The notes under the pieces are model-generated. The model had not been told where the DNA came from and searched no databases. It was given only the letters and a program-made list of their open reading frames with translations. Below are positions 10,348 through 47,344 of a stretch of DNA of 64,000 bases, one piece after another (within the stretch, counting starts at the first letter, position 1; every line of letters starts with the position of its first letter). Source of the stretch: an uncultured cyanobacterium. GTDB lineage: Bacteria; Cyanobacteriota; Cyanobacteriia; PCC-9006; JAAUQQ01. Made by a program: the position numbers and the translations under genes. Location: NCBI GenBank assembly GCA_963718615.1, contig OY970368.1, positions 768,001 to 832,000 of the forward strand, read 5' to 3'.

Positions 10348-13134
10348 CTAAAGCCAATTCCCCACTGCAATAAACGCGGCCCAATAGCCCGGATGGCTGA
10401 ATTGACTGCGACGCGATCGCGCAATCCAATCCCGTTGCATGGTTTGCAGCGCTGCTGCTCGACCCATGCCCTGCTGCCACACTTGATAAAACTGAATCAT
10501 CATCTGGGCGGTGGCTTCATCATCAACCCGCCAGAGCGACGCCAAACTAGACTGCACACCCGACTGAAACATCATGCCTGAGATGCCTAGGATATCGCGA
10601 TCGCTCCCCACTGCGGTCTCACAGGCACTCAGCGTCAGCAGGCGAATCGGCTCTGGAGCCTGTTGAACCACGTCCGCCAATTGTTGAATGGTTAGGGTTT
10701 CATTAAATTGCTCGGGCGTGCTCCGTAGGGCCTTTTGCTGGGGCGAATTCTGGGGCAAATTTTGCGGTAGATCCTGGGTTAAAGCATCCGATCCTAAGGC
10801 GTCTTCAGGCTTGCCCAAAATCAAAAACGTTTGCCGTGCGTCATAGCCAAACTGCGCATGGGTCGCGAGGTGTAGCAACTGAGCCGGTTGAGAATGGGTC
10901 ATCTGGCCGAGAAACAGCCGCGTAAATTTTTCATTAAATAGACCCTGATGGGGTACAAATTGGTCCGCAATGGTATTCACTTCTTCGTCCACATAATCGA
11001 GGGCCGGAAAGCGCAATCCATTGGCCAATTCTGCCGGTTGAGTCAGCCCAAAGGGCAACGCTTGAATCTGATTCACCACTAAGGGTAAGGGTTTAATTTC
11101 TGACAGGATGGGTGCGATCCCCAGGGCGTATTGTTCAACCAAAAATTGCTCCCCATCAAACAAGGGAGCCATGGGAATGCTCCGCAAAATACCGTCTTGC
11201 ATAAACACTAACGTGTCGATGCCTGCCGCTTGGAGCTGGGCCGCAACCGGACGAATCAGCCAGTCGTAGAATTGCGTTGCCCCCTTGAGATAGCCGTTGG
11301 CGCGGTCGGAGCGTTGGCCCAGCAAGCTACGAAATTCATTGACCTGTTCGATCAACTCGGTGCGCTTGAGCGGAATCCAGTACAGCTCCGACCGAACCGG
11401 AACCAGATCCGCCTGACCTTCACGGGGCTGAATCGGATTCTCGGGAGTGACATTGGGAATGGCCACCACCACCGCCGTGGCCTCTTCAAACACCAAGGTG
11501 GTAATAATGGCCGTATGGGTGTCACCGGGCGTAATCGGTGGCAGTTCCGGTGGCGGTTCGCAGACTTTACCCAAATAGTTTTGCAACTCCAGCAAGTGGA
11601 GTTCATCAATAATTTGGACTGCATTGATGAGTCGCTTCTGAGCCTCCGCGTCGGGCCAAGCCGTCACCCCAAAGGCCCCAGGATAGGCCACGGAACGCAC
11701 CAGGAGGCGACTGAGCTGACGGTAGATGGGTGCAATGACGCTGTAGAAATCCGGTTGGCGATCGCGCGTCGAAACACTCAACACTCCCCGCACCCCCTTG
11801 AGCGAGTCCAGCGTATATTGGTATGCCTTTAAGGCCGCCGCTTCATTGCCCTGGGCCAGCAAAATCCGGGCTGCTTGCCAATTCCACAGATAACGATCCC
11901 CCTTGTCCTGCCCCAAAACCTGGGCTTGGCGGGTCCAGTCTTGAGCGGTTTTATAGTCACCTTGGCATTCGTACAGATGACCCATATGGCCCCGCACCAC
12001 GGACTCTAGGCCCGCATCCTGGAGCCGCTGCGCCCCCAGAACTGCTCGCCGCACCCAGCCTGTCAGCCTCCGGGTAGGCGCAAGGTTCTCACAGAGGGCC
12101 GGGGCTCCTTCTCGCAGAAAATCCTGGGGGGGCGGTACCTCCAGAAAACCAACCCGCAAGAGGTCATAAACCTGGTCCTGGGAAAGGGGCATCTGATTGA
12201 CGAGGCTGCGGGCTTCCGCTAGGGCGGCCTGGGTGATCGCCTGCATGGACGGTTGATACCGGCTCACGGACACCAAATTTAACAGCCGCTCCAGACGCTC
12301 CGTCTGCGGTTGGGGAAGCTGCAACGCCTCTTGGAGGGCGGTAATGGATTCCTGGGTATGGGTTTGCACCGCTGCGCGAAAGTTCTTAGCGGCAATCCAG
12401 TCTTTTTTTCCTTCGGCAAACCGGGTATAGCGTTCGTTTTGCACCATCAGCCGGTAATGCAACGCTCCCAACTGACTAAGGGCGGCAATTTGATAGGGAA
12501 AATGCTTCAGCTCCACAGCCAGGTTGTAGGCGCGCTGGTAGGTGGCGATCGCCGCTTCATACTGGGCCTGCTCAAAGAACGCACTGCCTAGGGCACCGAG
12601 GGCCGCAGTCAATCCCACGCCATCGTTTTGGTCCATGGCGATCGCCACCGCGCTATCGGGCAGACAGGTTTGCGGCGGGGGCTGGTTCGGTTCGGATTGG
12701 CCGCAGAGCAGCGCCACTGCCCAGTCATATTGACCCAGGTCCGCAGCGATTTGGGCTTGCTCCGTCAGCATGTGACCTAGGTCCGTGGGCCGTTGAAGCT
12801 GTTGGTAGGCTGTAATCAGGCGATCAAACTCATCAATTGCGGGTATCGTTTGACCCGTTTTTTGATAGGCCCTTGCCTGATAGCGGTACAAATCCAGTCG
12901 GGTTTCCAGATTGGGGGCTTGGCGGAGCGCATTCTTCCAAAAGGCCAGGGCGTTGTGATAATCCCCGGCATAGTAGGCATCTAAGCCTTGCTGAATGAGG
13001 CGTTCGGGTTCCCCAAGCTGACTGAGGGCTGGGGCGATCGCCCCGAGTCGCAAACAAAAAATTAGGGTACAAATCACAGTACCCACAAAAAGACTCAATC
13101 GTCGCCAAATTCGTAACCGGCTACGGATGGCCAT
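10348..13134 (-). CDS. Exported TPR-CHAT (caspase-like) domain protein
   Basis: Signal peptide, TPRs, DGILRSIPMAPLFDG, HLATHAQF, LSACETAVG, ASLWRVDD, HPGYWAAF. Confidence 0.93.
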   Translation of the reverse strand: MAIRSRLRIWRRLSLFVGTVICTLIFCLRLGAIAPALSQLGEPERLIQQGLDAYYAGDYHNALAFWKNALRQAPNLETRLDLYRYQARAYQKTGQTIPAIDEFDRLITAYQQLQRPTDLGHMLTEQAQIAADLGQYDWAVALLCGQSEPNQPPPQTCLPDSAVAIAMDQNDGVGLTAALGALGSAFFEQAQYEAAIATYQRAYNLAVELKHFPYQIAALSQLGALHYRLMVQNERYTRFAEGKKDWIAAKNFRAAVQTHTQESITALQEALQLPQPQTERLERLLNLVSVSRYQPSMQAITQAALAEARSLVNQMPLSQDQVYDLLRVGFLEVPPPQDFLREGAPALCENLAPTRRLTGWVRRAVLGAQRLQDAGLESVVRGHMGHLYECQGDYKTAQDWTRQAQVLGQDKGDRYLWNWQAARILLAQGNEAAALKAYQYTLDSLKGVRGVLSVSTRDRQPDFYSVIAPIYRQLSRLLVRSVAYPGAFGVTAWPDAEAQKRLINAVQIIDELHLLELQNYLGKVCEPPPELPPITPGDTHTAIITTLVFEEATAVVVAIPNVTPENPIQPREGQADLVPVRSELYWIPLKRTELIEQVNEFRSLLGQRSDRANGYLKGATQFYDWLIRPVAAQLQAAGIDTLVFMQDGILRSIPMAPLFDGEQFLVEQYALGIAPILSEIKPLPLVVNQIQALPFGLTQPAELANGLRFPALDYVDEEVNTIADQFVPHQGLFNEKFTRLFLGQMTHSQPAQLLHLATHAQFGYDARQTFLILGKPEDALGSDALTQDLPQNLPQNSPQQKALRSTPEQFNETLTIQQLADVVQQAPEPIRLLTLSACETAVGSDRDILGISGMMFQSGVQSSLASLWRVDDEATAQMMIQFYQVWQQGMGRAAALQTMQRDWIARSRRSQFSHPGYWAAFIAVGNWL

Positions 13135-13315
13135 ACCCCATGACTACATCTCACTAGTGGGTCAATAGGACAGAACTTAGTTATTATCTCGCAGAAGGTT
13201 TTAGCGGATTTACAGGAGTCATGAATTCACAAATCGTGAAATGATGCTTTTGTAGGTTTTTGTTCAAGCTTTGTTGCCATAGTTATCGTTCATTTGTCGT
13301 TATTCCTGCGCTGCC

Positions 13316-15613
13316 ATGCTTCATCAGCCCCGCTTTGCGCCGCAGTTTCGCGTGATTTCGCTCCCACCGGATCAAGTTTTGCTGCGGACAGAGCAGGATT
13401 TTTTTATGCTCCAGGGTGCTCTCTATTGCCAGATTGCGGCCTTAATCGATGGCCAGCACACAACCGATGAGATTGTCGCAGCCTTACAACCCCAGGGGTC
13501 GCTGCCGCAGCTTTACTATGCGCTCATGCAGCTCGAAGAAAAGGGATACACCATTGAATCAAATTCGACCCGTCTTGATTTTGTAAGTTTTGCTGGTTTT
13601 AGTGTTCAAAGAGTTTCTGTAAAAACCTACATTTCAGCAGAAAGTCAACCCACATTAGAGGCCCTAGGGCAGGCGAGCGCCACCCAACTCACCGCCGCCC
13701 TCAGGGATTGGGGACTCACTCCAGTCCCCCCCGACGACCCGGACGTGGACCTCGGCATTGTCCTCACCGATAACTATCTGCACCCAAACCTAGAGCGCTA
13801 TAACCAACTCACCCTCGCAGCCCAGCGTCCCTGGCTGATCGTCAAACCCTGGGGGGAGCAGATTTGGCTGGGTCCTTGGTTTCAGCCCGATGACACCGGC
13901 TGCTGGGGCTGTTTGGCGCAGCGACTGCGGGGCAATCGTCCGGTGGATGCCTGGTTGAGTCAGTTGGAGACGGTAGAGCTGCTACAAACGGAGGTCTGGG
14001 GGGAGGACCCTGGGATGGGGGCGATCGCCCTCGGTTTAATTCGCCAAGCCCTCTATCATTCCGAAACCGTCTGGGGACAGTTGCTGACATTCAACCCCCG
14101 CACCCTCACCAGTCGCAGCCATCCGCTGCCCCATCGTCCCCAATGTTTGGCCTGTGGCTCCATCGATTTTCAGACAATTTGCACCGACCAATTGCCCACC
14201 GAGCCCTGGGTGCTATCGGCCTCGCCTAAGGCTTTTACCCAGGATGGGGGCCACCGCAGCCAGCCCCCCGAAATCACCCTGGAACAGCTCCAGCCCCACA
14301 TCAGCCCCCTCCTGGGAATCATCCGCGAGTTGCGAGAAGTGCCACCGGCGCATCCCAACCACACCACCCAAACCCTGCTCCACACCTATGTCGCCGGTCA
14401 TGACACTGGAGCGACCCCCGAAACCCTCAACGCCCTCAAGATCAATTTGCAAGGTCGCAGTGCCGGTAAGGGCAAAACAGCGATTCAAGCCCAGGTGAGT
14501 GCATTGTGTGAGGCGATCGAGCGCCATTCTGGGATTTTTCAGGGGTATGAATTGCATCGACGCGATCGCTACAACCACCTTGGCCCAAACCTCGCCATCG
14601 ATCCCCAGCCCTTGCTCCTGTTTAGCCCCTCCCAATATGCCAATCGGCAAGCCTGGAATGCCACCTTGCCCAATTTGCGTCACCAGGTACCCGAGCCCTT
14701 TGACCCCGAAGCAGAGGTTGATTGGACGCCCATTTGGTCGCTGACGGAAAATCGCTGGAAATATATTCCCACGGCCTATTGCTACTACAACTATCCCGGT
14801 AATAAGCTCAACCAACCGCCTCCTTTTTGCTATGCCAACTCCAATGGTTGTGCCGCAGGCAACAGCCGCGAAGAGGCGATTTTGCAGGGTTTATTTGAGT
14901 TGGTGGAACGGGATGCGGTGGCGATTTGGTGGTGTAATCAGCTAGGGCGGCCTGAGGTGGATTTGACCAGTTTCCCGGACCCCTATTTTACTCAACTTCA
15001 GCATCACTATGCCGAGGAGCAGGGCCGGACGCTGTATGTGTTAGACCTAACGCACGACTTAGGCATTCCCACCTTTGCGGCGGTGTCCTATTTGCTGGAG
15101 CCGATTCCAACGGGGGAAGGCAACAATCCTGGAATTTTGTGTGGGTTCGGCTGTCATTTTGATGGGGCGATCGCCCTCTCCCGCGCCCTCACTGAAATCA
15201 ATCAGCTTTTGGTAGGAACGCCGGTGGCTAAGGCGAGGACGGAGGATGGAGGAGAAAAAAACGAGACGCCAGGGGAAACACCGTTGCAACTGGAGGGGCA
15301 GGATCAGCTCTTGCCGGATCCGTCTCAGCCGCGACGACGATATGAAGATTTCTCTGAGGAATGGCGGCAGGACCTGCGGGATGATGTATTAGCTGGGATG
15401 GAGATTTTGCGATCGCACGGTCTAGAAATGCTGGTCCTGGATCAAACCCGTCCGGACGTGAATTTGCCAGTGGTGCGAGTCGTCGTGCCGAAGATGCGCC
15501 ATTTTTGGCATCGGCTGGCACCAGGGCGGCTCTACGAGGTGCCGGTGGAGATGGGATGGTTGTCTCAGCCCAAAACCGAGGCTGATGTCAATCCGATCCT
15601 GTTTCCTTTTTGA
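13316..15613 (+). CDS. Fused TOMM cyclodehydratase (RRE + E1-like + YcaO; PatD/TruD-like)
   Basis: CWGCLAQRL and CLAC, DGGHR, CEAIERHS, NSNGCAAGNSREEAILQGLFELVERDA, Pro-rich C-terminus NPILFPF. Confidence 0.95.
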   Translation: MLHQPRFAPQFRVISLPPDQVLLRTEQDFFMLQGALYCQIAALIDGQHTTDEIVAALQPQGSLPQLYYALMQLEEKGYTIESNSTRLDFVSFAGFSVQRVSVKTYISAESQPTLEALGQASATQLTAALRDWGLTPVPPDDPDVDLGIVLTDNYLHPNLERYNQLTLAAQRPWLIVKPWGEQIWLGPWFQPDDTGCWGCLAQRLRGNRPVDAWLSQLETVELLQTEVWGEDPGMGAIALGLIRQALYHSETVWGQLLTFNPRTLTSRSHPLPHRPQCLACGSIDFQTICTDQLPTEPWVLSASPKAFTQDGGHRSQPPEITLEQLQPHISPLLGIIRELREVPPAHPNHTTQTLLHTYVAGHDTGATPETLNALKINLQGRSAGKGKTAIQAQVSALCEAIERHSGIFQGYELHRRDRYNHLGPNLAIDPQPLLLFSPSQYANRQAWNATLPNLRHQVPEPFDPEAEVDWTPIWSLTENRWKYIPTAYCYYNYPGNKLNQPPPFCYANSNGCAAGNSREEAILQGLFELVERDAVAIWWCNQLGRPEVDLTSFPDPYFTQLQHHYAEEQGRTLYVLDLTHDLGIPTFAAVSYLLEPIPTGEGNNPGILCGFGCHFDGAIALSRALTEINQLLVGTPVAKARTEDGGEKNETPGETPLQLEGQDQLLPDPSQPRRRYEDFSEEWRQDLRDDVLAGMEILRSHGLEMLVLDQTRPDVNLPVVRVVVPKMRHFWHRLAPGRLYEVPVEMGWLSQPKTEADVNPILFPF

Positions 15614-15651
15614 ACCTGTCCACTTGAACCTGTCCATTTGAACCTGTCCAC
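15610..15651 (+). repeat. 14-bp tandem repeat x3 (TTGAACCTGTCCAY)
   Basis: Directly visible, starting at the YcaO stop codon. Confidence 0.95.
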
Positions 15652-15677
15652 CTGTACTTTACAATCCGTACTTAGCC

Positions 15678-17201
15678 ATGGCTGATTCAATTGCTGACTC
15701 AACTGCTGCCGCAACGCTGGATTCCTTAACGCTCTCACTGAAGCCTGGAATTTCAATTGTGACCGATGCAGCAGAAGCCGGGGCCATCTTGCAAACGCCC
15801 TATGCCCAGCTTAATCTCAGTCATTTTTCACCCGGTTTGCTCGCAGCGTTGCAGCAATTGTCAAAAGTAGGGGCAACGGAGTCCGCGTTGAGTTTACAGG
15901 TGATGGCAACGGATGGTTTTAGTGGTTTGCCTAAGCTACACTTTTTGCTCGCCAAGCTGATCCAGCTAGGGACGATTTGCTATGGTGTGCGGCAGCAGGA
16001 TAAACCCTTTGCAACCTTAATGCCGACGGTTTTCGGTGTAGCCTTTGAGTCGCCTCGGTTTCCTGCGATTTCGCTCGAAACAGGCTACAAACTCTCTCGA
16101 TTTGCCTATAGCCACAGCCAGCTCGATTCCCATTCCGATCAAAACCAATGGGTGCTGAAATCACCCTTAGCCCAAGCCCAAATTGTTCTGCACGATTGGC
16201 GCGGGGGGGCCATGGTCGCAGCTTTGGCGACTGGCATGACAGGACAAGTATTACTGACAGAAATTCCTGGTTTAGAACCTGAGACGGTCCAAGGGCTTTT
16301 GAGTTTGTTAGTGAGCTGCCAAATGGTCGCAGTCTGCGCAGAAACAGGTGATGTAGACCCCGAACCCGATACGCTGAAACAGTGGGAGTTTCACGATTTG
16401 ATTTTCCACACCCGCTGCCGTCAGGGTCGGCACAATCAAGTGGTGGGATCAACCTATCGTTTTCGAGGCCATATCGATCCGCTTCCTGTGATTAAAACCC
16501 AACCCGATGAATGGAAAAAAATTGATCTCTATAAACCCGATTTAGAAGCCCTCAAGGCTCAAGATCTGCCTTTCACTCAAGTCCTAGAAGCGCGTCGTTC
16601 CATTCGCAAATTTGCCCCAGCGCCAATCACGCTTGAGCAGTTGGGTGAGTTTCTTTATCGTTCGGCCAGGGTACGGCAAATCTTCCCGATGGAAAATCTG
16701 GACTGTAGCGATCGCCCCTACCCCAGCAGCGGGGCCTGCTACGAATTTGAACTGTATATTGCGGTGAATCAGTGCGAGGGGTTGGCCCAAGGGCTTTATC
16801 ATTATTGTCCCCAAGAACATCGTTTGGGGAAAGTGAGGGATTGGCATGAGGCGATCGCCGCCCTCCTGACTGACGCCAGCCACGCCAGCCGCCGGGAGGA
16901 ATTGCCCCAACTGTTGATTGTGATTGCGGCCCGATTCCCACGATTAACCTGGAAATACCAATCCCTGGCCTATTCGCTGATTTTGAAAAACTTGGGTTGT
17001 CTTTACCAAACGATGTATCTGGTGGCAACGGCAATGGGCTTGGCTCCCTGCTGTTTGGGTAGCGGTAATGCGGATCGGTTTGCGCAGATTGCAGGGACGG
17101 ATTACTGGGTGGAGACTTCTGTGGGTGAGTTTATGTTGGGGAGTCAACCGGCTGATCTATCGGGGGAGGCGAAGGTGTTGCTGATTGAGCGATCGCGGTG
17201 A
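15678..17201 (+). CDS. SagB/ThcOx-family FMN-dependent azoline dehydrogenase
   Basis: WEFHDLIFH, ARRSIRKF, RPYPSSG, catalytic WKY, LYQTMYLVATAMGLAPC, VGEFMLG. Confidence 0.93.
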   Translation: MADSIADSTAAATLDSLTLSLKPGISIVTDAAEAGAILQTPYAQLNLSHFSPGLLAALQQLSKVGATESALSLQVMATDGFSGLPKLHFLLAKLIQLGTICYGVRQQDKPFATLMPTVFGVAFESPRFPAISLETGYKLSRFAYSHSQLDSHSDQNQWVLKSPLAQAQIVLHDWRGGAMVAALATGMTGQVLLTEIPGLEPETVQGLLSLLVSCQMVAVCAETGDVDPEPDTLKQWEFHDLIFHTRCRQGRHNQVVGSTYRFRGHIDPLPVIKTQPDEWKKIDLYKPDLEALKAQDLPFTQVLEARRSIRKFAPAPITLEQLGEFLYRSARVRQIFPMENLDCSDRPYPSSGACYEFELYIAVNQCEGLAQGLYHYCPQEHRLGKVRDWHEAIAALLTDASHASRREELPQLLIVIAARFPRLTWKYQSLAYSLILKNLGCLYQTMYLVATAMGLAPCCLGSGNADRFAQIAGTDYWVETSVGEFMLGSQPADLSGEAKVLLIERSR

Positions 17202-17349
17202 GAGGAGGGTTGGGAGATTCTAACTTGTCTAAAATTTTGTGAAGGCTCTCGGGAGGGGTGGCTGGGTGGCTATACTGGGATGAGTCTACCTAATCTGCCT
17301 ATGAGGGTGTTATGCAGACATATGGCTACCCAATCTCCTCTAGAGGGTT

Positions 17350-17427
17350 GTTAGATGGACAGATTTCCATCTAACGCGCCCAAACCGTGACTAGATGGAC
17401 TAGATTCAGTCCAATAAATTGTTAGGC
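17350..17427 (+). other. attI-like recombination site
   Basis: Simple site GTCCAAT-AAATT-GTTAGGC at 17409-17427. Upstream: perfect IR GTTAGATGGA-N6-TCCATCTAAC and a direct repeat TAGATGGAC (17352, 17392). Confidence 0.65.
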
Positions 17428-19005
17428 ATCATCAATATTTTCAATAATTAACAAAAGTAAGGACTGCATTTAAGTTATGCTTCTTAACCAAATTGACTGG
17501 GGTGATGATAGCGCAGAGAGAGATGAACATCTTCTTGAATACTTTGTCAGTTCAGAAGCATTCCGTCGGCTTTCTGAGAATCGTCGGTCGCTAGTAATTG
17601 GGCGTAAGGGATCAGGAAAAAGTGCGCTTCTAAAAAAGCTATATAACCATTTTCAGAAAACTGAGGATACTTATGTAGTCAAAATAGCTCCAAACTTTAG
17701 CAGTATTCGCACAATCCTAAATGACCATGATTTGAAAGAATCCTTTGGAGAGGAAATCTTTTTTCAACACACATGGTTGCGTCAAATCTTGATTGATTTA
17801 CTTTGTGCCATTGGTCATAGTGCTAAAGGAGCGTATTGCCACGGAAGCCACGCTTATGCACGTCAAATTGCACAACAACTAAACCGAACCTCCAAAGACC
17901 TTGTCGAAAATATATCAGAGATATTAGAGAGAACTAAGCTTAAAGCTGGAAAATTAGGAGAGTTTGGTCTAGGGCTTGAGAATCAGCTAAAAGAGATTTC
18001 GGAAGTGGATGCCTTGCAACATCATTTAGTTGAGTTGGCAAAAGGTGGAGCTCATTTTGTTGCTCTAATCGATGATTTGGATTTAGGTTGGGATAACTCG
18101 ACAACCGCAAATAATTTGCTTTTAGGTCTACTGTCTGCGTCTAACTATATTTCTGGTCTACACGAGTTCATACATCCCATTGTGTTCCTTCGTGAAGATG
18201 TATACACCATTTTATTGAGTAAGACTCAACATTCTGATAAATATCGTGATGTGGAGAGAATTAGATGGGCTCAAGAGCAGCTTCTTTCGGTTCTGGAAAA
18301 GAGGATAAACTTTAACCGTCAAAGAGCAGGTTGTCCGGCAATTGATGAATCATTTTTTTCCGTTTTTCCACGCACTATTGGTACTGCAAATACTGACAAC
18401 TGGTTGATTGAAAAAACTCTGTCTCGTCCCAGAGAGTTAATACAACTTGCTCGTTATTACACTGAAGATGTGAATGACAGTGATCCTTCAGATGAGAAAC
18501 TAAAATCAGCAGAACCAACGTACTCAAGCTGGAAATTAGATGATCTTTGTGCTGAGTATTCAAATCAGTACCCTGGTTTAAGCGCTATAATGTCGTATTG
18601 GAAGACGAGGTTTCGTCGCAGAAAATATCATCTAAAGCGAGCAGAAGTTGACGAAATTCTACTTGAAATCATGTCTAACGTTACGCTCGATTGTCATTGG
18701 TTCAATCAACTTATTGATAATACGGACACTTCGGAATTCCTAAGGATATTATACGAGATAGGCTTTCTCGGAGATTTTGTGCTGGGAGGTCAGGGAGGAA
18801 GTAGAACTTACTACGCATATCAGGAATATCATGAACCTTCGTTTGAGGAGATTCAAATTCACCCTTGTTTCAGGCGCGCTGTCAATACAGTTGAGAGAAT
18901 TAGAAACCGTTAGCTGTGACTTGATGCCTAACGTGTCGTGGCAGCGGACGGACAGAAGGTATCTGTTGACGACTGAAAGTTACTGACCGCCGCTGCACTT
19001 TGCCG
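17422..19005 (+). mobile_element. Integron-type gene cassette
   Basis: Starts G|TTAGGCATCA; its exact 11-bp reverse complement TGATGCCTAAC follows the gene stop and opens an attC. Confidence 0.88.
17477..18913 (+). CDS. P-loop ATPase (Sll1717/FunZ-like), cassette-borne
   Basis: WGDDSAERD, Walker A GRKGSGKS, Walker B ALIDDLD, VFLREDVY, RPRELIQ, LYEIGFLG, IHPCF; AT-rich. Confidence 0.8.
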   Translation: MLLNQIDWGDDSAERDEHLLEYFVSSEAFRRLSENRRSLVIGRKGSGKSALLKKLYNHFQKTEDTYVVKIAPNFSSIRTILNDHDLKESFGEEIFFQHTWLRQILIDLLCAIGHSAKGAYCHGSHAYARQIAQQLNRTSKDLVENISEILERTKLKAGKLGEFGLGLENQLKEISEVDALQHHLVELAKGGAHFVALIDDLDLGWDNSTTANNLLLGLLSASNYISGLHEFIHPIVFLREDVYTILLSKTQHSDKYRDVERIRWAQEQLLSVLEKRINFNRQRAGCPAIDESFFSVFPRTIGTANTDNWLIEKTLSRPRELIQLARYYTEDVNDSDPSDEKLKSAEPTYSSWKLDDLCAEYSNQYPGLSAIMSYWKTRFRRRKYHLKRAEVDEILLEIMSNVTLDCHWFNQLIDNTDTSEFLRILYEIGFLGDFVLGGQGGSRTYYAYQEYHEPSFEEIQIHPCFRRAVNTVERIRNR

Positions 19006-19011
19006 TTAGCC
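18926..19011 (+). other. attC site (86 bp)
   Basis: R'' GCCTAAC, 5 nt, L'' GTGGCAGC-GGACGG ... CCGCC-GCTGCAC L', 6 nt, R' GTTAGCC; two unpaired extra bases in the left arm. Confidence 0.9.
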
Positions 19012-19078
19012 AGCCTTCACTCTTAAATTTTGCCAGTTCTGGAAAACTGCCTGTAATAAGGTTGCCACTAATTGACAC

Positions 19079-20782
19079 TCACAGAGGAAAGTCTGATCTC
19101 CAAATGTGAACAGCTCGCTGTGCTAGATACCTTTGCCGTGTAGCGAGTGTATTTGGATTCCATTCTTCAGCCAAAACATCTTTTGTTAGAGTGTAAACAC
19201 TCTGCTGATAAACTGTTCGCTTGATTAGATAAAGCCCATTTCCTACCTGACGATTAAGATGAGGTTCTAAGGGGGTTAGATTTCCAATGCGGTATACCAT
19301 TTCTTCTATTTGGGCATCATTGAAACTTTGCCACCACTCACTACTCGGTGATTCAGGCAAAATGTGTTCAATAGAAAAACTATCTTCATTGACCTCTATA
19401 TTTGACGTATCTGCCTCAAGCTTGAACAAAATATATCGGACTAGTTTCTTCTTTTGCCCTTTTGTGGAAATTGAGAGTAGGGAAAAGTCTTGCAAGAACT
19501 TCTCATCCGAAACATAAATTGAGCGAAGATTATCAAACACCTGTTTAGGATTGGTTATTTCACCATTTACAATCCCGATGGCTACTTTGTTGTAAAGAGT
19601 TTCTAATTCATTGGGATTTAGACGACTAACAACGGTATAACGAAAAGATAATACACACACAAGTTTTAATAGGCGAGTAAAGTTTTCAGGAGAAAACCTC
19701 TCATATGCTGCAAATAGAGTTGGATAGGCTTGCTTTACTCGAAATAACTCAAGTTCGCGAATATAGGGTCGGTTTTCTGAAGCATCACGCCAGAACTCGT
19801 CGTTAGAGTTACTGAGAGCAATAAAAAGACTACCGTAGTTCTCAAGCTGATCGAGCAATTCAAATGCTTGTTGACCATCCTTTACCGATTCACGAACAAC
19901 TTTAAATAGTCGTTCACGTCTCACCCTAGTCTGCTTAAGACTAAGGTAGTAACGAAGAAACTCAGGGAATTTCTCCATTTGAACTGTATTGATAATTCTC
20001 CTCCATTGTCTTTGTGCCTCTTGTAGATCGTCTGGTCCTTGAAACAGAGAAAATAGGTAATTCTTTAGTAAATCGGTTGAACTCAGTTCGATGCCTCTAG
20101 CATTTAACGTCTCAAAGACGGTATAAGCATTTAATTCATCCTCAACATTAATCTGAATAAAAAGGAGTCTTTGAGCAACAGTATCCGTTAAAAACTCAGC
20201 CAACTTTTCCCCATTCTGAACAACGTCTTGAAGCCCCTCTAAATGATGTGAGAAATACTGAAAAGCTTGCCAGAGCAATTGATTGGATTTTGAAAGCGAT
20301 CTAATGTTAAGTGGCTTTCTAAGATTTATCAAATTACTTTGATAAAAATCGTTGTTGTTTTCATTCAAGAGAAGCTTGCTTGAGTAACGAAGAGAGCGTG
20401 GATCTCTATCGCTCAGATAAGTACGCTTGAGAATTTCTTGTCGTTCTTGATTAGCTTCTTTTTGCTCTTCTCGCTCTACTAATTTTTGAATCTTATCAAT
20501 AACAGCGATAGCAATAATACTGAGAGTGGCTAACCGTTGTTGTCCATCTATGATCGTAAACGCTTTGTCTGAAGTACTAGAGCTTTGTAGGACAAGTGCG
20601 CCCATGTAGTGACTAGAATCAGAGTTTACGTGGAGTACTAAAATATCCTGCCAAAGATCCTCCCAGTTTTCCTCATTCCAAGAGTAATCACGCTGGAAAG
20701 GCGGCACTCGATAAATCTTGCCATTGCCGATCAAATCGCCGAAACTGTTAGTGCGCGTGTCCAACAGATTAATTCGAGCCAT
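19079..20782 (-). CDS. GmrSD-family type IV restriction endonuclease (DUF262 + DUF1524/HNH)
   Basis: VPPFQRDYSW, IIDGQQRL, VFETLNARG, SIEHILP, IGNLTPL. Confidence 0.92.
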   Translation of the reverse strand: MARINLLDTRTNSFGDLIGNGKIYRVPPFQRDYSWNEENWEDLWQDILVLHVNSDSSHYMGALVLQSSSTSDKAFTIIDGQQRLATLSIIAIAVIDKIQKLVEREEQKEANQERQEILKRTYLSDRDPRSLRYSSKLLLNENNNDFYQSNLINLRKPLNIRSLSKSNQLLWQAFQYFSHHLEGLQDVVQNGEKLAEFLTDTVAQRLLFIQINVEDELNAYTVFETLNARGIELSSTDLLKNYLFSLFQGPDDLQEAQRQWRRIINTVQMEKFPEFLRYYLSLKQTRVRRERLFKVVRESVKDGQQAFELLDQLENYGSLFIALSNSNDEFWRDASENRPYIRELELFRVKQAYPTLFAAYERFSPENFTRLLKLVCVLSFRYTVVSRLNPNELETLYNKVAIGIVNGEITNPKQVFDNLRSIYVSDEKFLQDFSLLSISTKGQKKKLVRYILFKLEADTSNIEVNEDSFSIEHILPESPSSEWWQSFNDAQIEEMVYRIGNLTPLEPHLNRQVGNGLYLIKRTVYQQSVYTLTKDVLAEEWNPNTLATRQRYLAQRAVHIWRSDFPL

Positions 20783-21020
20783 AAGTCAGGATGAGTGAAC
20801 TAGTTCCAATCTCTAAGGTATCAGGAGCTAGTCTATTTGGTGTAGCTGAACTCCCGACAGGCCAATCGGGATAGGGGTCGCCTTCACAGACTCCTCCTCC
20901 TAACTGCTAGACAAACTGATAGCCCTTCTTCTTGTAGCCCTGGACCTTCATCCACAGGTTATGAATCGATAGCAATCCCTATAGTCAGTCCATCATGTCC
21001 CGCTAGTATCGTGCAATTTG

Positions 21021-21254
21021 CTAACGAATGGGGGCTAGGCTTTGGGTCGGCTGCGGATCCCCCCCAAAGCCCAGCCACTGGCCAAATAGCTCAAATACCT
21101 GATTCGGACCAATTCCGAAAAACGTCAACAGCAAAAAGATAGCCGCCACCAACAGCGCCGTTTTAATCGTTGTTTTGACAATTTTGAGCAAAAACGTAAA
21201 CACGAGCCAAGCAATCAGAATGGCACCGATGACAAGAATTGCAGTTTCCATCAC
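21021..21254 (-). CDS. Small membrane protein (2 TM)
   Basis: Hydrophobic 77-aa ORF with GGAG RBS directly after dxr. Confidence 0.75.
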   Translation of the reverse strand: MMETAILVIGAILIAWLVFTFLLKIVKTTIKTALLVAAIFLLLTFFGIGPNQVFELFGQWLGFGGDPQPTQSLAPIR

Positions 21255-21286
21255 TCCTCCGGTTTTTGGGTTTGGTTCTCTATCGC

Positions 21287-22507
21287 TTAAACGCTCAAAA
21301 TGGGTTGTTTCTCTAAGGCATTACTCGCTTCCAAAACCGCTTGGCGAGCCCAGGTGTCCGCTTCCAAAATATCATCGAGACTCGGGTTGGCGTTATTGTT
21401 GTTGCGGTGGCGATCGCACACCTGCTCAATCACCCGAGGAATCTCCAAAAACTGAATTTGTTCCTCAATAAACAACGCTACCGCCTGCTCATTGGCCGCA
21501 TTCAACACCGCCGTCATCGAGCCTCCCGCCCGACCCGCCGCATAGGCCAAATCCATACAGGGATATTTGGCATGGTCCGGCTCTCGGAAGGTTAAACTCC
21601 CGGCTTTCACCAAATCCAACGGCTCCCAATTTGTATAAATTCGCTCCGGCCAAGACAGGGCATAAAGCAAGGGCAGACGCATATCCGGCCAGCCGAGCTG
21701 AGCCAGCATCGACGTATCCTGCATTTCGATCAGCGAATGGATAATGCTTTGGGGATGGATGACAATATCGATTTGGTCGTAGTCCAGGCCAAACAAATAG
21801 TGCGCTTCGATCACCTCCAAACCCTTATTCATCAGTGTGGCAGAATCCACGGTGATTTTTTTACCCATGGACCAGTTCGGATGCTTCAGCGCATCGGCCA
21901 CCGTCACCTCCGGCAGCCGTTCCACCGGCCAATCCCGAAAGGCTCCACCGGAAGCCGTCAGCAAAATCCGCCGCAGCCCCACATCCGGACGACCGACGAC
22001 AAAGTCTTTTCCGTGGGACAGACCCTGGATGCATTGAAAAATCGCCGAATGCTCCGAATCCGCCGGAGTAATGCGGATGCCATGTTCCTGGGCCAGAGGC
22101 AACACCACGGGGCCACCGGCAATCAGCGTTTCTTTGTTGGCGAGCGCAATATCCTTTCCAGCCTTGATCGCAGCCAGGGTGGGCAACAGTCCGGCACAAC
22201 CCACAATCCCCGTGACAACGGCTTCCGCATCGCCGTAGGCCGCCACTTCGCACATGCCCTCGGGTCCAGCGCAGAGCAGGGGCTGGGGGGTGACATCGGC
22301 GATCGCCTCCTTCAGCAGCGGTAGATCCTCGGGGCGGGCGATCGCCACAATCTCCGGCTTAAACTGACGAATCTGCTGGGCAATCAACTCAAGATTTCGC
22401 CCCGCCGCCATCCCAACAATCCGAAACTGGTCCGGATGATCCTGCACGATATCAAGGGTCTGGGTCCCGATGGAGCCGGTGGAGCCGAGGAGGGTGATTG
22501 CTTTCAC
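21287..22507 (-). CDS. dxr: 1-deoxy-D-xylulose-5-phosphate reductoisomerase
   Basis: [45 protein letters not shown]. Confidence 0.98.
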
Positions 22508-47218: not shown

Positions 47219-47344
47219 CAACCAAGCAATCACTCGTAGTTGCCCCAGCTAACTTCACCGTTAGCTAGCTTCGGTTATGGGTTGGGGCAGTACAGTTAAG
47301 CCATCTGTGCAGTGTTCGGCATCAGGTAAGTGGTAATATAGTTT

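Follow-up and report, generated by a model that had tools for sequence, protein, structure and literature searches.

An attI-family module without an adjacent integrase gene probably heads a small cassette array in a cyanobacterial chromosome

Introduction

How does a gene cassette with its own attC come to lie directly behind an attI-like site in a place where no integrase gene accompanies either of them? The question is raised by a 64,000-nt stretch, hereafter called the window, which covers positions 768001-832000 of contig C1 (G000:C1:768001-832000), the single contig of a 6.10-Mb cyanobacterial chromosome. A first-pass annotation of the window had described an attI-like simple site, one bracketed gene and an attC, and had proposed a stand-alone docking site that is served in trans. 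Positions given below are those of the window unless a contig is named.

The attI site is known in detail for only a few mobile integron classes, and surveys define integrase-less arrays by their attC sites alone and debate their origin. Excerpts from PMC4889954 describe attI as not searchable, or not known, for most integrons. Off-target insertion, integrase loss and rearrangement are named as origins of integrase-less arrays in excerpts from PMC8618304 and 10.1101/2022.09.11.507474.

Based on the results presented here, we suggest that 17220-20862 is probably a small cassette array whose head is an attI-family site lacking its own integrase gene. The structural reading of the locus is held with high confidence. 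The contigs of four other public sequencing runs (X1, X2, X3 and X5) were compared with 17100-21100; no public run is of this strain or contains more than 0.13 of the sampled words, and no RNA run was found.

Results

The attC site and the complete cassette

As far as sequence can tell, the segment at 18926-19011 is a genuine attC. Its R'' box, GCCTAAC (18926-18932), is followed by a 5-nt spacer and by the 14-nt L'' (18938-18951), and two bases, G18941 and A18948, remain unpaired on the R''-L'' arm. A variable loop separates L'' from the 12-nt L' (18987-18998), after which come a 6-nt spacer and R', GTTAGCC (19005-19011). R'' and R' pair at six of seven positions. The core consensus of attC sites is RYYYAAC for R'' and GTTRRRY for R', and the bulged bases of class 1 attC sites are G and T. 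The sixth base of R' is off the strict consensus, and the bulged bases of the bottom strand are C and T, one of which differs from the class 1 pattern. The attC had been called canonical in the first-pass annotation, and this is right for the 5/6-nt spacers and the two extrahelical bases but not for the sixth base of R' or the identity of the bulges. Regular-expression scans for attC sites failed to detect the window site, owing to the departure of its R' from strict GTTRRRY, and were dropped in favor of covariance models.

The bottom strand of the site folds at -20.2 kcal/mol, a value that none of 200 shuffles equalled. A DNA search of 30 related genomes gave 12 places in seven genomes that are 74-79% identical to the attC stretch alone, and local BLAST contributed five more relatives, which brings the foreign sites to 17. 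Together with the window attC they form an alignment of 18 rows (A1). In its L helix, 97.7% of the cells are paired and 5 of the 12 pairs show compensatory changes, while the bulge columns 18 and 25 are invariant in 18/18 members; 69% of the R helix is paired. The overall pairing is 87.1% vs 81.3% in shuffles, and the observed value was reached by 0 of 500 shuffles.

Two covariance models of this attC family were used. R1 is the family model, and R3 was built from the 17 sites of seven other genomes with the window site excluded; like the module model R2 described below, both were calibrated only briefly. The first-pass annotation had stated that its proposal would fall if an attC covariance model missed 18926-19011. 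R3, which is a model of the family and not the generic one of IntegronFinder, matches the site with E 1.7e-22 (bit scores in Table 1). Across the 64-kb window, only 18924-19013 is matched credibly by R1 and R3, and no attC was found upstream of cassette 1, as the first-pass annotation had it, nor after cassette 2. A weak attC-model match at 47223-47268 (+; 12.2-12.4 bits, E 0.2-0.45), 46 nt long though scored as full-length, is probably due to chance. The segment 17366-17430 was considered as a short attC and rejected, its fold being no better than shuffles (z -1.5).

The 11-mer GTTAGGCATCA at 17421-17431 and its reverse complement TGATGCCTAAC at 18922-18932 are complementary at 11/11 positions, and the two are the only matches in the window vs 0.02 expected from shuffles. 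The 5' bases of cassette 1 with the preceding G thereby form an 11-nt complement to its own R'', a feature expected of a circularising unit. Moreover, the unit was found in three of the four runs compared: in X1 (17421-19011, ~97% identical), in X2 (17421-19010, ~92%) and in X5 (17417-19008, ~95%), so that its ends agree within 4 nt at 92-97% identity. In these contigs, the sequence on both sides of the unit is unlike that of the window, and the letters before the unit in X1 and X2 resemble the end of another attC. The comparison shows cassette 1 to be a complete mobile cassette, joined to the upstream module at G|TT (17421|17422). The gene that it carries starts 55 nt past the crossover and encodes an ATPase that reaches 249.6 bits with NCBIfam NF047389 (cut-off 75); weak P-loop matches to defence ATPases were obtained in Pfam and PADLOC.

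The locus might also have nothing to do with integrons, the 11-nt repeat being due to chance and the hairpin being a bidirectional terminator within an acquired defence islet. In its favor, convergent genes stand on either side of the hairpin, the islet is defence-like and rich in AT, and an 11-nt inverted repeat is not rare in itself (by our arithmetic, ~0.7 are expected by chance per 2.4-kb stretch). The significance of the inverted 11-mer comes, however, from its position on two recombination boxes. No T-run terminator is present at the hairpin, which scores as belonging to an attC family that shows covariation and occurs in arrays beside intI, and the unit recurs elsewhere with exact cassette ends. 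We therefore give this explanation practically no weight.

The module upstream of the cassette

The module is built of inverted pairs of boxes. Pair 1 consists of GTTATGC (17309-17315) and a partner at ~17324-17334, pair 2 is a perfect 10-6-10 palindrome at 17350-17375, and pair 3 joins CTAGATGGAC (17391-17400) with GTCCAAT (17409-17415); the crossover core GTTAGGC (17421-17427) closes the module. The TAGATGGAC box lies twice in the upstream region (17352 and 17392) and once inside the GmrSD gene of cassette 2, which makes three matches vs 0.33 expected. The 11-mer pair, the palindrome, the boxes and the simple site were all found where the first-pass annotation had placed them. The box arrays are predicted integrase-binding sites. 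In addition, the hexamer TATACT (17271-17276) is conserved and lies inside a GGTGG-N-TATACTG block that is common to the modules of G244 and of type C.

Further copies of the module were found. Copy B (C1:5044749-5044954) lies beside mnmG/gidA and is identical at 173 of 205 positions. A third copy (G003:C252), 83-85% identical over 162 nt, is placed between a CHASE2 gene and genes for ExbD-like, Mrr and DapB proteins, and a fourth, which spans 17220-17417, lies in a 331-nt contig of run X2. The window module, copy B and the G003:C252 copy are 83-85% alike up to ..ATTGTT and unrelated beyond it, whereas the first-pass annotation had held that homologues always followed by the same sequence would speak against a capture site. 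The identity of the window module to copy B climbs toward the crossover, from 63.6% through 87.5% to 92.6% in three segments. The left end at 17220 is identical in the window, in copy B and in the X2 contig, the DNA further left being unrelated, and it coincides with CTAAC, an inverted core-like motif. In an order-level DNA search, the module was found in two of eight genomes, this one included. The module and the ATPase gene were also considered as one repeated unit; this was rejected, as the proteins encoded after three modules are unrelated (21-24% identity, gappy alignment).

An integron integrase above the curated cut-off is present in 127 of 401 genomes of the class; in these genomes, such integrases are often multi-copy and often contain in-frame stops. 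Thirty integrase loci were examined with a joint nhmmer profile of five modules. Within ~250 nt of the intI start, the profile matched at 10 of the 30 loci with E <= 0.002 and at one with E 0.06, and 19 gave no match. Of 10 loci, six have R1 sites on the side and strand expected from the intI-attI pair, one has a site on the wrong side and three have none; eight R1 attC sites fall within 12 kb of G019:C15. Profile A, built from the three close window-type copies only, matches G244:C43 with E 1.7e-12; the match points away from an intact intI whose start codon is 84 nt distant, and a cassette with an attC lies behind this attI.

All copies found by nhmmer end in the same way, with an inverted pair of core-like boxes, 5-7 nt and GTTA, followed by unrelated DNA. 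Split profiles distinguish subfamilies of modules, and a third type stands beside three intI wrecks. All of them share the architecture of 16 aligned modules (A3), which have in common three inverted pairs of core-like boxes and GTCCAAT-N5-GTTAGGC at the crossover. A sequence-only model of A3 (R2) also recognises the window module (Table 1). The modules of a sister subfamily are longer, from 330 to >430 nt, and contain five or six box pairs. The window module does not lie between intI and a first cassette, whereas its relatives in other genomes do. Taken together, the profile matches place the 205-bp module in the attI family whose members, in cyanobacterial integrons, separate intI from the first cassette. 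Multiple copies, relatives beside intI in other genomes and different cassettes after GTT were what the first-pass annotation had predicted for such a site.

Distribution of modules and attC sites

The genome searches scored 150 first-look candidates each, and the modules, being quasi-palindromic, echo on the opposite strand, so the counts of modules and attC sites are approximate. R2 detected ~26 distinct module loci in this genome (E <= 0.01), and the suggestion of a genome-wide set of capture sites in the first-pass annotation is thus borne out, with most modules lacking an integrase. One of the 26 modules lies beside an intact intI (948484) and four beside broken copies (1907315, 3859327, 4712945 and 4714016). 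The remaining 21 have no TIGR02249 or tblastn match within 3 kb, and within the same distance of the window module these searches likewise gave no integrase match. The intact intI is located at C1:948635-949606, 163 kb from the locus. Its product scores 443.8 bits with TIGR02249 (cut-off 265) and aligns end to end, the integron-specific insertion included, with the integron integrase structure 2A3V, and the regions of the RHR..Y motif are conserved.

Nineteen attC matches were found in the genome. Thirteen of them have a same-strand module upstream at a distance of up to 5.5 kb vs 0.22 expected, and an attC is present downstream of 17 of the 26 modules. R2 gave 31 module loci in five other complete genomes, 8 of which loci stand beside a full-length intI (8 of the 9 full-length genes) and 18 of which have no integrase match nearby (E <= 0.001). 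In genome G023, four of the eight modules without an adjacent integrase gene (orphan modules) are followed by a same-strand attC of the family within 5 kb. An exact-pattern scan of contigs for the 3' motif of the module gave 60 loci, which were set aside as chance, as none of the 60 was matched by the profile or by IntI. A weak module match (21.7 bits, E 7e-4) was observed at C1:745658-745779, 22 kb left of the window, and no attC was found downstream of it.

These counts bear on the possibility of an off-target, attG-type insertion at an ordinary genomic GTT, with the attI-like features upstream being incidental; recombination of attC x attG has been demonstrated experimentally. According to excerpts from 10.1101/2022.09.11.507474, isolated cassettes, that is, single attC sites lacking integron-integrases (SALINs), are common and insertion needs little beyond GWT; the locus indeed has a single detectable attC. 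However, the upstream 205 bp form a conserved module that is present repeatedly and has relatives adjoining intI, and homology stops at the same GTT in its copies. The placement of 13 of 19 attC sites downstream of modules also indicates that dispersed random insertion is not the rule here. We consider an insertion of this type very improbable.

A 203-bp cassette without an open reading frame (ORF) has three copies in the genome (97.0, 92.6 and 92.2% identical pairwise), each directly after the GTT of a different module. It was found at C1:948283-948484 beside the intact intI and at two orphan modules, 5044953-5045155 (copy B) and 4665789-4665991. The cassette at copy B is 97% identical to that at the integrase-linked attI, and the window module and copy B, both orphans, are 84% alike. 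The attI at 1907450, beside an intI stub, is identical to the 948483 attI at 163 of 170 positions and does not have this cassette; the two therefore represent an empty and a filled attI, with insertion exactly at G|TT. By R1, the attC of the ORF-less cassette is ~120 nt long.

Tandem modules were observed at C1:4665643-4665790 and 4667193-4667340 (L030), 1.4 kb apart on the same strand and each with its own cassette, and genome G220 has tandem modules at two loci. Many sequences after GTTA open with a motif of ~25 nt, TGCTGCT..AGTCCTC..G..GGGAC, that includes a small hairpin. It was seen at C1:2250414, 1907450, 4667340 and 948283 and in the loose end of X5 after 19008, and it represents either a leader that many cassettes share or the right half native to the attI. 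The modules 2250414 and 4667340 share an extra 130-170 nt, in which no likeness to the IntI N-terminus was noticed when the frames were read by eye.

Cassette 2, the intron relic and the surroundings

Cassette 2 begins with G|TTAGCC at 19005|19006, and its gene encodes a GmrSD protein (Pfam GmrSD_N 128 bits and GmrSD_C 94 bits; PADLOC HEC-06 763 bits). The GmrSD unit (19004/19006-20862) recurs in contigs of X2 and X3, where an attC of the family follows; in X3, the end of another attC precedes it. Like cassette 1, this cassette is thereby shown to be mobile. Cassette 2 is 92% identical to sequences of G019 (contigs C3 and C11), a genome of a different cyanobacterial family, and there too an R1 attC follows (76 bits). 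The DNA identity of 92% to another family points to a putative recent horizontal transfer of the GmrSD cassette. When 19015-20865 is compared with these two places (L024 and L025), the cassette there is seen to have an extra ORF of ~680 bp. In the window, homology to the GmrSD cassettes stops inside R'', where GGCCAAT (20860-20866) stands instead of GGCTAAC.

A group II intron maturase relic of 82 nt follows the truncated end of cassette 2 (Table 1). Its translation matches the C-terminus of an ORF at L037:4333-4650 that carries Pfam GIIM (E 2.6e-5), and a search of 17000-21400 and of L037 in Rfam gave zero families. Longer copies of the relic were observed at C1:1008570-1008650 and, in part, at 4657318-4657364, as well as in G024 (three copies) and G018. 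The repeat had been considered as a second attC and was rejected, since it has no structure (z +1.3 and +1.8). Group IIC introns target attC sites. An association of group IIC introns with integrons is described in excerpts from PMC7923331, and an intron may have played a part when cassette 2 lost its attC.

Table 1. Features of the cassette array and its immediate surroundings in the window
Feature	Position	Strand	Basis
attI-family module without an adjacent integrase gene	17220..17424	+	Copies; profile A; R2 85.5 bits
Cassette 1, complete (TTAGGC to G of R')	17422..19005	+	Ends recur in runs X1, X2 and X5
Cassette gene: 478-aa P-loop ATPase, Sll1717 family	17477..18913	+	NCBIfam NF047389
attC of cassette 1, 86 nt	18926..19011	+	R3 74.9 bits; R1 83.2 bits; fold z -3.5
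Cassette 2, attC missing from R'' onward; GmrSD gene reversed	19006..20862	+	Units in X2, X3 and G019
GmrSD-type (DUF262/DUF1524) type IV restriction-like gene	19079..20782	-	Pfam; PADLOC
Group II intron maturase relic (last ~20 codons)	20899..20980	-	Translation matches ORF L037:4333-4650

The left neighbor of the array is a gene for a ThcOx-type cyanobactin oxidase (15678-17201), preceded by a YcaO gene, in agreement with the first-pass assignment of the neighbor to the oxidases of ribosomally synthesized and post-translationally modified peptides (RiPPs). The ThcOx stop codon (17199-17201) lies 19 nt from the left end of the module. At 10348-17201, the order is CHAT-TPR protein gene, YcaO cyclodehydratase gene and ThcOx-type oxidase gene, a RiPP cluster. 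On the right, the islet is flanked by a small membrane ORF and dxr. The GC content is ~0.39 in the islet vs 0.52-0.60 around it, and the low-GC island extends to ~20850. The first-pass annotation had described one bracketed AT-rich gene; cassette 1 is AT-rich, but the island goes on past it and includes the second, truncated cassette. An unoccupied version of the locus was not found among the relatives, which retain only dxr and the small membrane gene and whose contigs stop there.

Discussion

Several observations weigh against our reading of the site. At least three of the 21 modules without an integrase match (1477, 4518 and 3238) align at the DNA level with the first intI codons, and 5 of the 31 module loci in the five other genomes stand beside N-terminal intI stubs. 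The proposed promoter consists of a conserved hexamer only, and a consensus scan gave four sites vs 3.6 expected. The array is worn, with cassette 2 devoid of an attC and the intron relic 36 nt beyond its end. In addition, neither the window-type nor the intact-intI-type profile finds the other type at E <= 1. As a rule, integrases are selective for their attI, and the surviving IntI may not recognise the window module, which is of another subfamily than the attI linked to that IntI. The N-terminal stubs beside integrase-less modules mean that at least a portion of the set is accounted for by the loss of an integrase that was formerly adjacent, and the decay series is an argument for regarding most orphans as remnants of full integrons.

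At its extreme, this argument makes the locus a dead relic, in which intI was deleted and the attI and the cassettes were frozen, and turns the modules of the genome into a graveyard of decayed integrons. Such an account would agree with the series that leads from full intI through N-terminal stubs to no integrase beside modules, here and in the five other genomes, with the attC-less cassette 2 next to an intron relic, and with the different subfamilies of the window module and the intact-intI attI. Furthermore, integrase loss is an accepted origin of attC-site clusters that have no integron-integrase (CALINs) in excerpts from PMC8618304 and PMC4889954. The dead-relic account is opposed by the ThcOx stop codon so close to the module with no integrase remnant remaining, by the same left end in three unrelated contexts (window, copy B and X2), by conservation that climbs toward the crossover, by the 97%-identical ORF-less cassette at an orphan module and by the presence of an intact IntI in the genome. 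On balance, we find a dead relic rather unlikely.

An array headed by an attI-family site without its own integrase gene remains our preferred reading, and some details may tell something of its history. A module copied or moved after losing its integrase fits the same left end better than three identical deletions. The identity that rises toward the crossover is a weak hint that the module may have continued in use. Likewise, the ORF-less cassette suggests an arrival at copy B after the integrase was gone, because the cassettes are 97% and the modules 84% alike and the modules share an integrase-less left end. It should be added that both hints of continued use are weak, as they rest on unequal clocks.

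We propose the following way of assembly for the array. The cassettes would have entered as circles by recombination between a folded bottom-strand attC and the double-stranded attI, each at the first array position. The enzyme would have been supplied from elsewhere in the chromosome, either by the intact IntI or by one of the four now-broken intI copies, and the box arrays of the module would have served for its binding. TATACT may act as the -10 element of a cassette promoter that points into the ATPase gene. As to use in trans at the present time, we judge from sequence that the chances for the site are about even. More tentatively, one integrase may serve dozens of dispersed, promoter-bearing attI pads, which would be units of ~200 bp copied to new places. 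Cassettes, here those with defence genes, would then be taken up, expressed and traded at numerous positions of the chromosome simultaneously rather than in a single array. The identical left end in three unrelated contexts suggests pads as discrete copied units; even so, we offer this distributed integron as a conjecture that we would sooner doubt than adopt.

Activity of the orphan sites would make the whole chromosome, and not one locus, the functional unit of the integron in these bacteria, and defence genes such as those for GmrSD and the ATPase of Sll1717 type would move between numerous positions of expression. Should the sites be relics, they form a graded series for the study of integron decay in which the landing site and the promoter are kept.

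Comparison with known systems

By its single attC and the lack of an integrase, the locus fits the definition of a SALIN, and IntegronFinder would most likely report it as such; it is not a CALIN, the second attC having been deleted. With both categories it shares a real cassette with an attC and the absence of a nearby intI, although only one attC survives here. They are defined without reference to attI, whereas the window retains a recognisable attI module, one of a family with ~26 copies in the genome.

Complete chromosomal integrons, such as those at 948483-949606 and in G244:C43, resemble the locus in the layout of box pairs ending in ..TTGTTA, in the G|TT crossover, in the orientation of the cassettes and in the attC family. 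The locus itself is not a complete integron, the intact intI being 163 kb away and none lying in the window. It has no intI or intI remnant, ThcOx is 19 nt away, and its module belongs to another subfamily than that of the genome's own integron. The attI of class 1 integrons consists of two direct repeats and a simple site. The window module is more elaborate, with at least three inverted box pairs over 150-200 bp, and the modules of the sister subfamily extend over at least 330 bp.

The attG sites described in excerpts from 10.1101/2022.09.11.507474 are similar in that a cassette lies outside a complete integron at GTT. An attG is, however, an unrelated genomic GWT, while the target here is a conserved module of the attI family. 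The cassettes of delta-attI type in excerpts from PMC12901181 indicate that an attI away from intI, within an array, can recombine, and the tandem modules at C1:4665790/4667340 look similar; in those resistance cassettes of clinical class 1 integrons, truncated pieces of attI1/attI2 form the 3' site, whereas in the window a full-length attI heads a chromosomal array. Decayed chromosomal integrons with an inactivated intI, of the type reported for Xanthomonas in excerpts from 10.1101/2025.06.18.660453, are matched by the loci 1907, 3859, 4646 and 4713 of this genome, which consist of a stub, an attI and cassettes. The window locus instead keeps no integrase remnant, and copies of its module with an identical left end are present in other contexts.

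In the literature searched, supplements aside, no description of dispersed integrase-less attI sites was found. What is new here is a recognisable attI that is retained without an integrase as one of a large dispersed set. To the systems described so far, this adds an attI family that extends across cyanobacterial families and can be searched by profiles, and a genome in which most attC sites sit behind such a site and most such sites are without an integrase.

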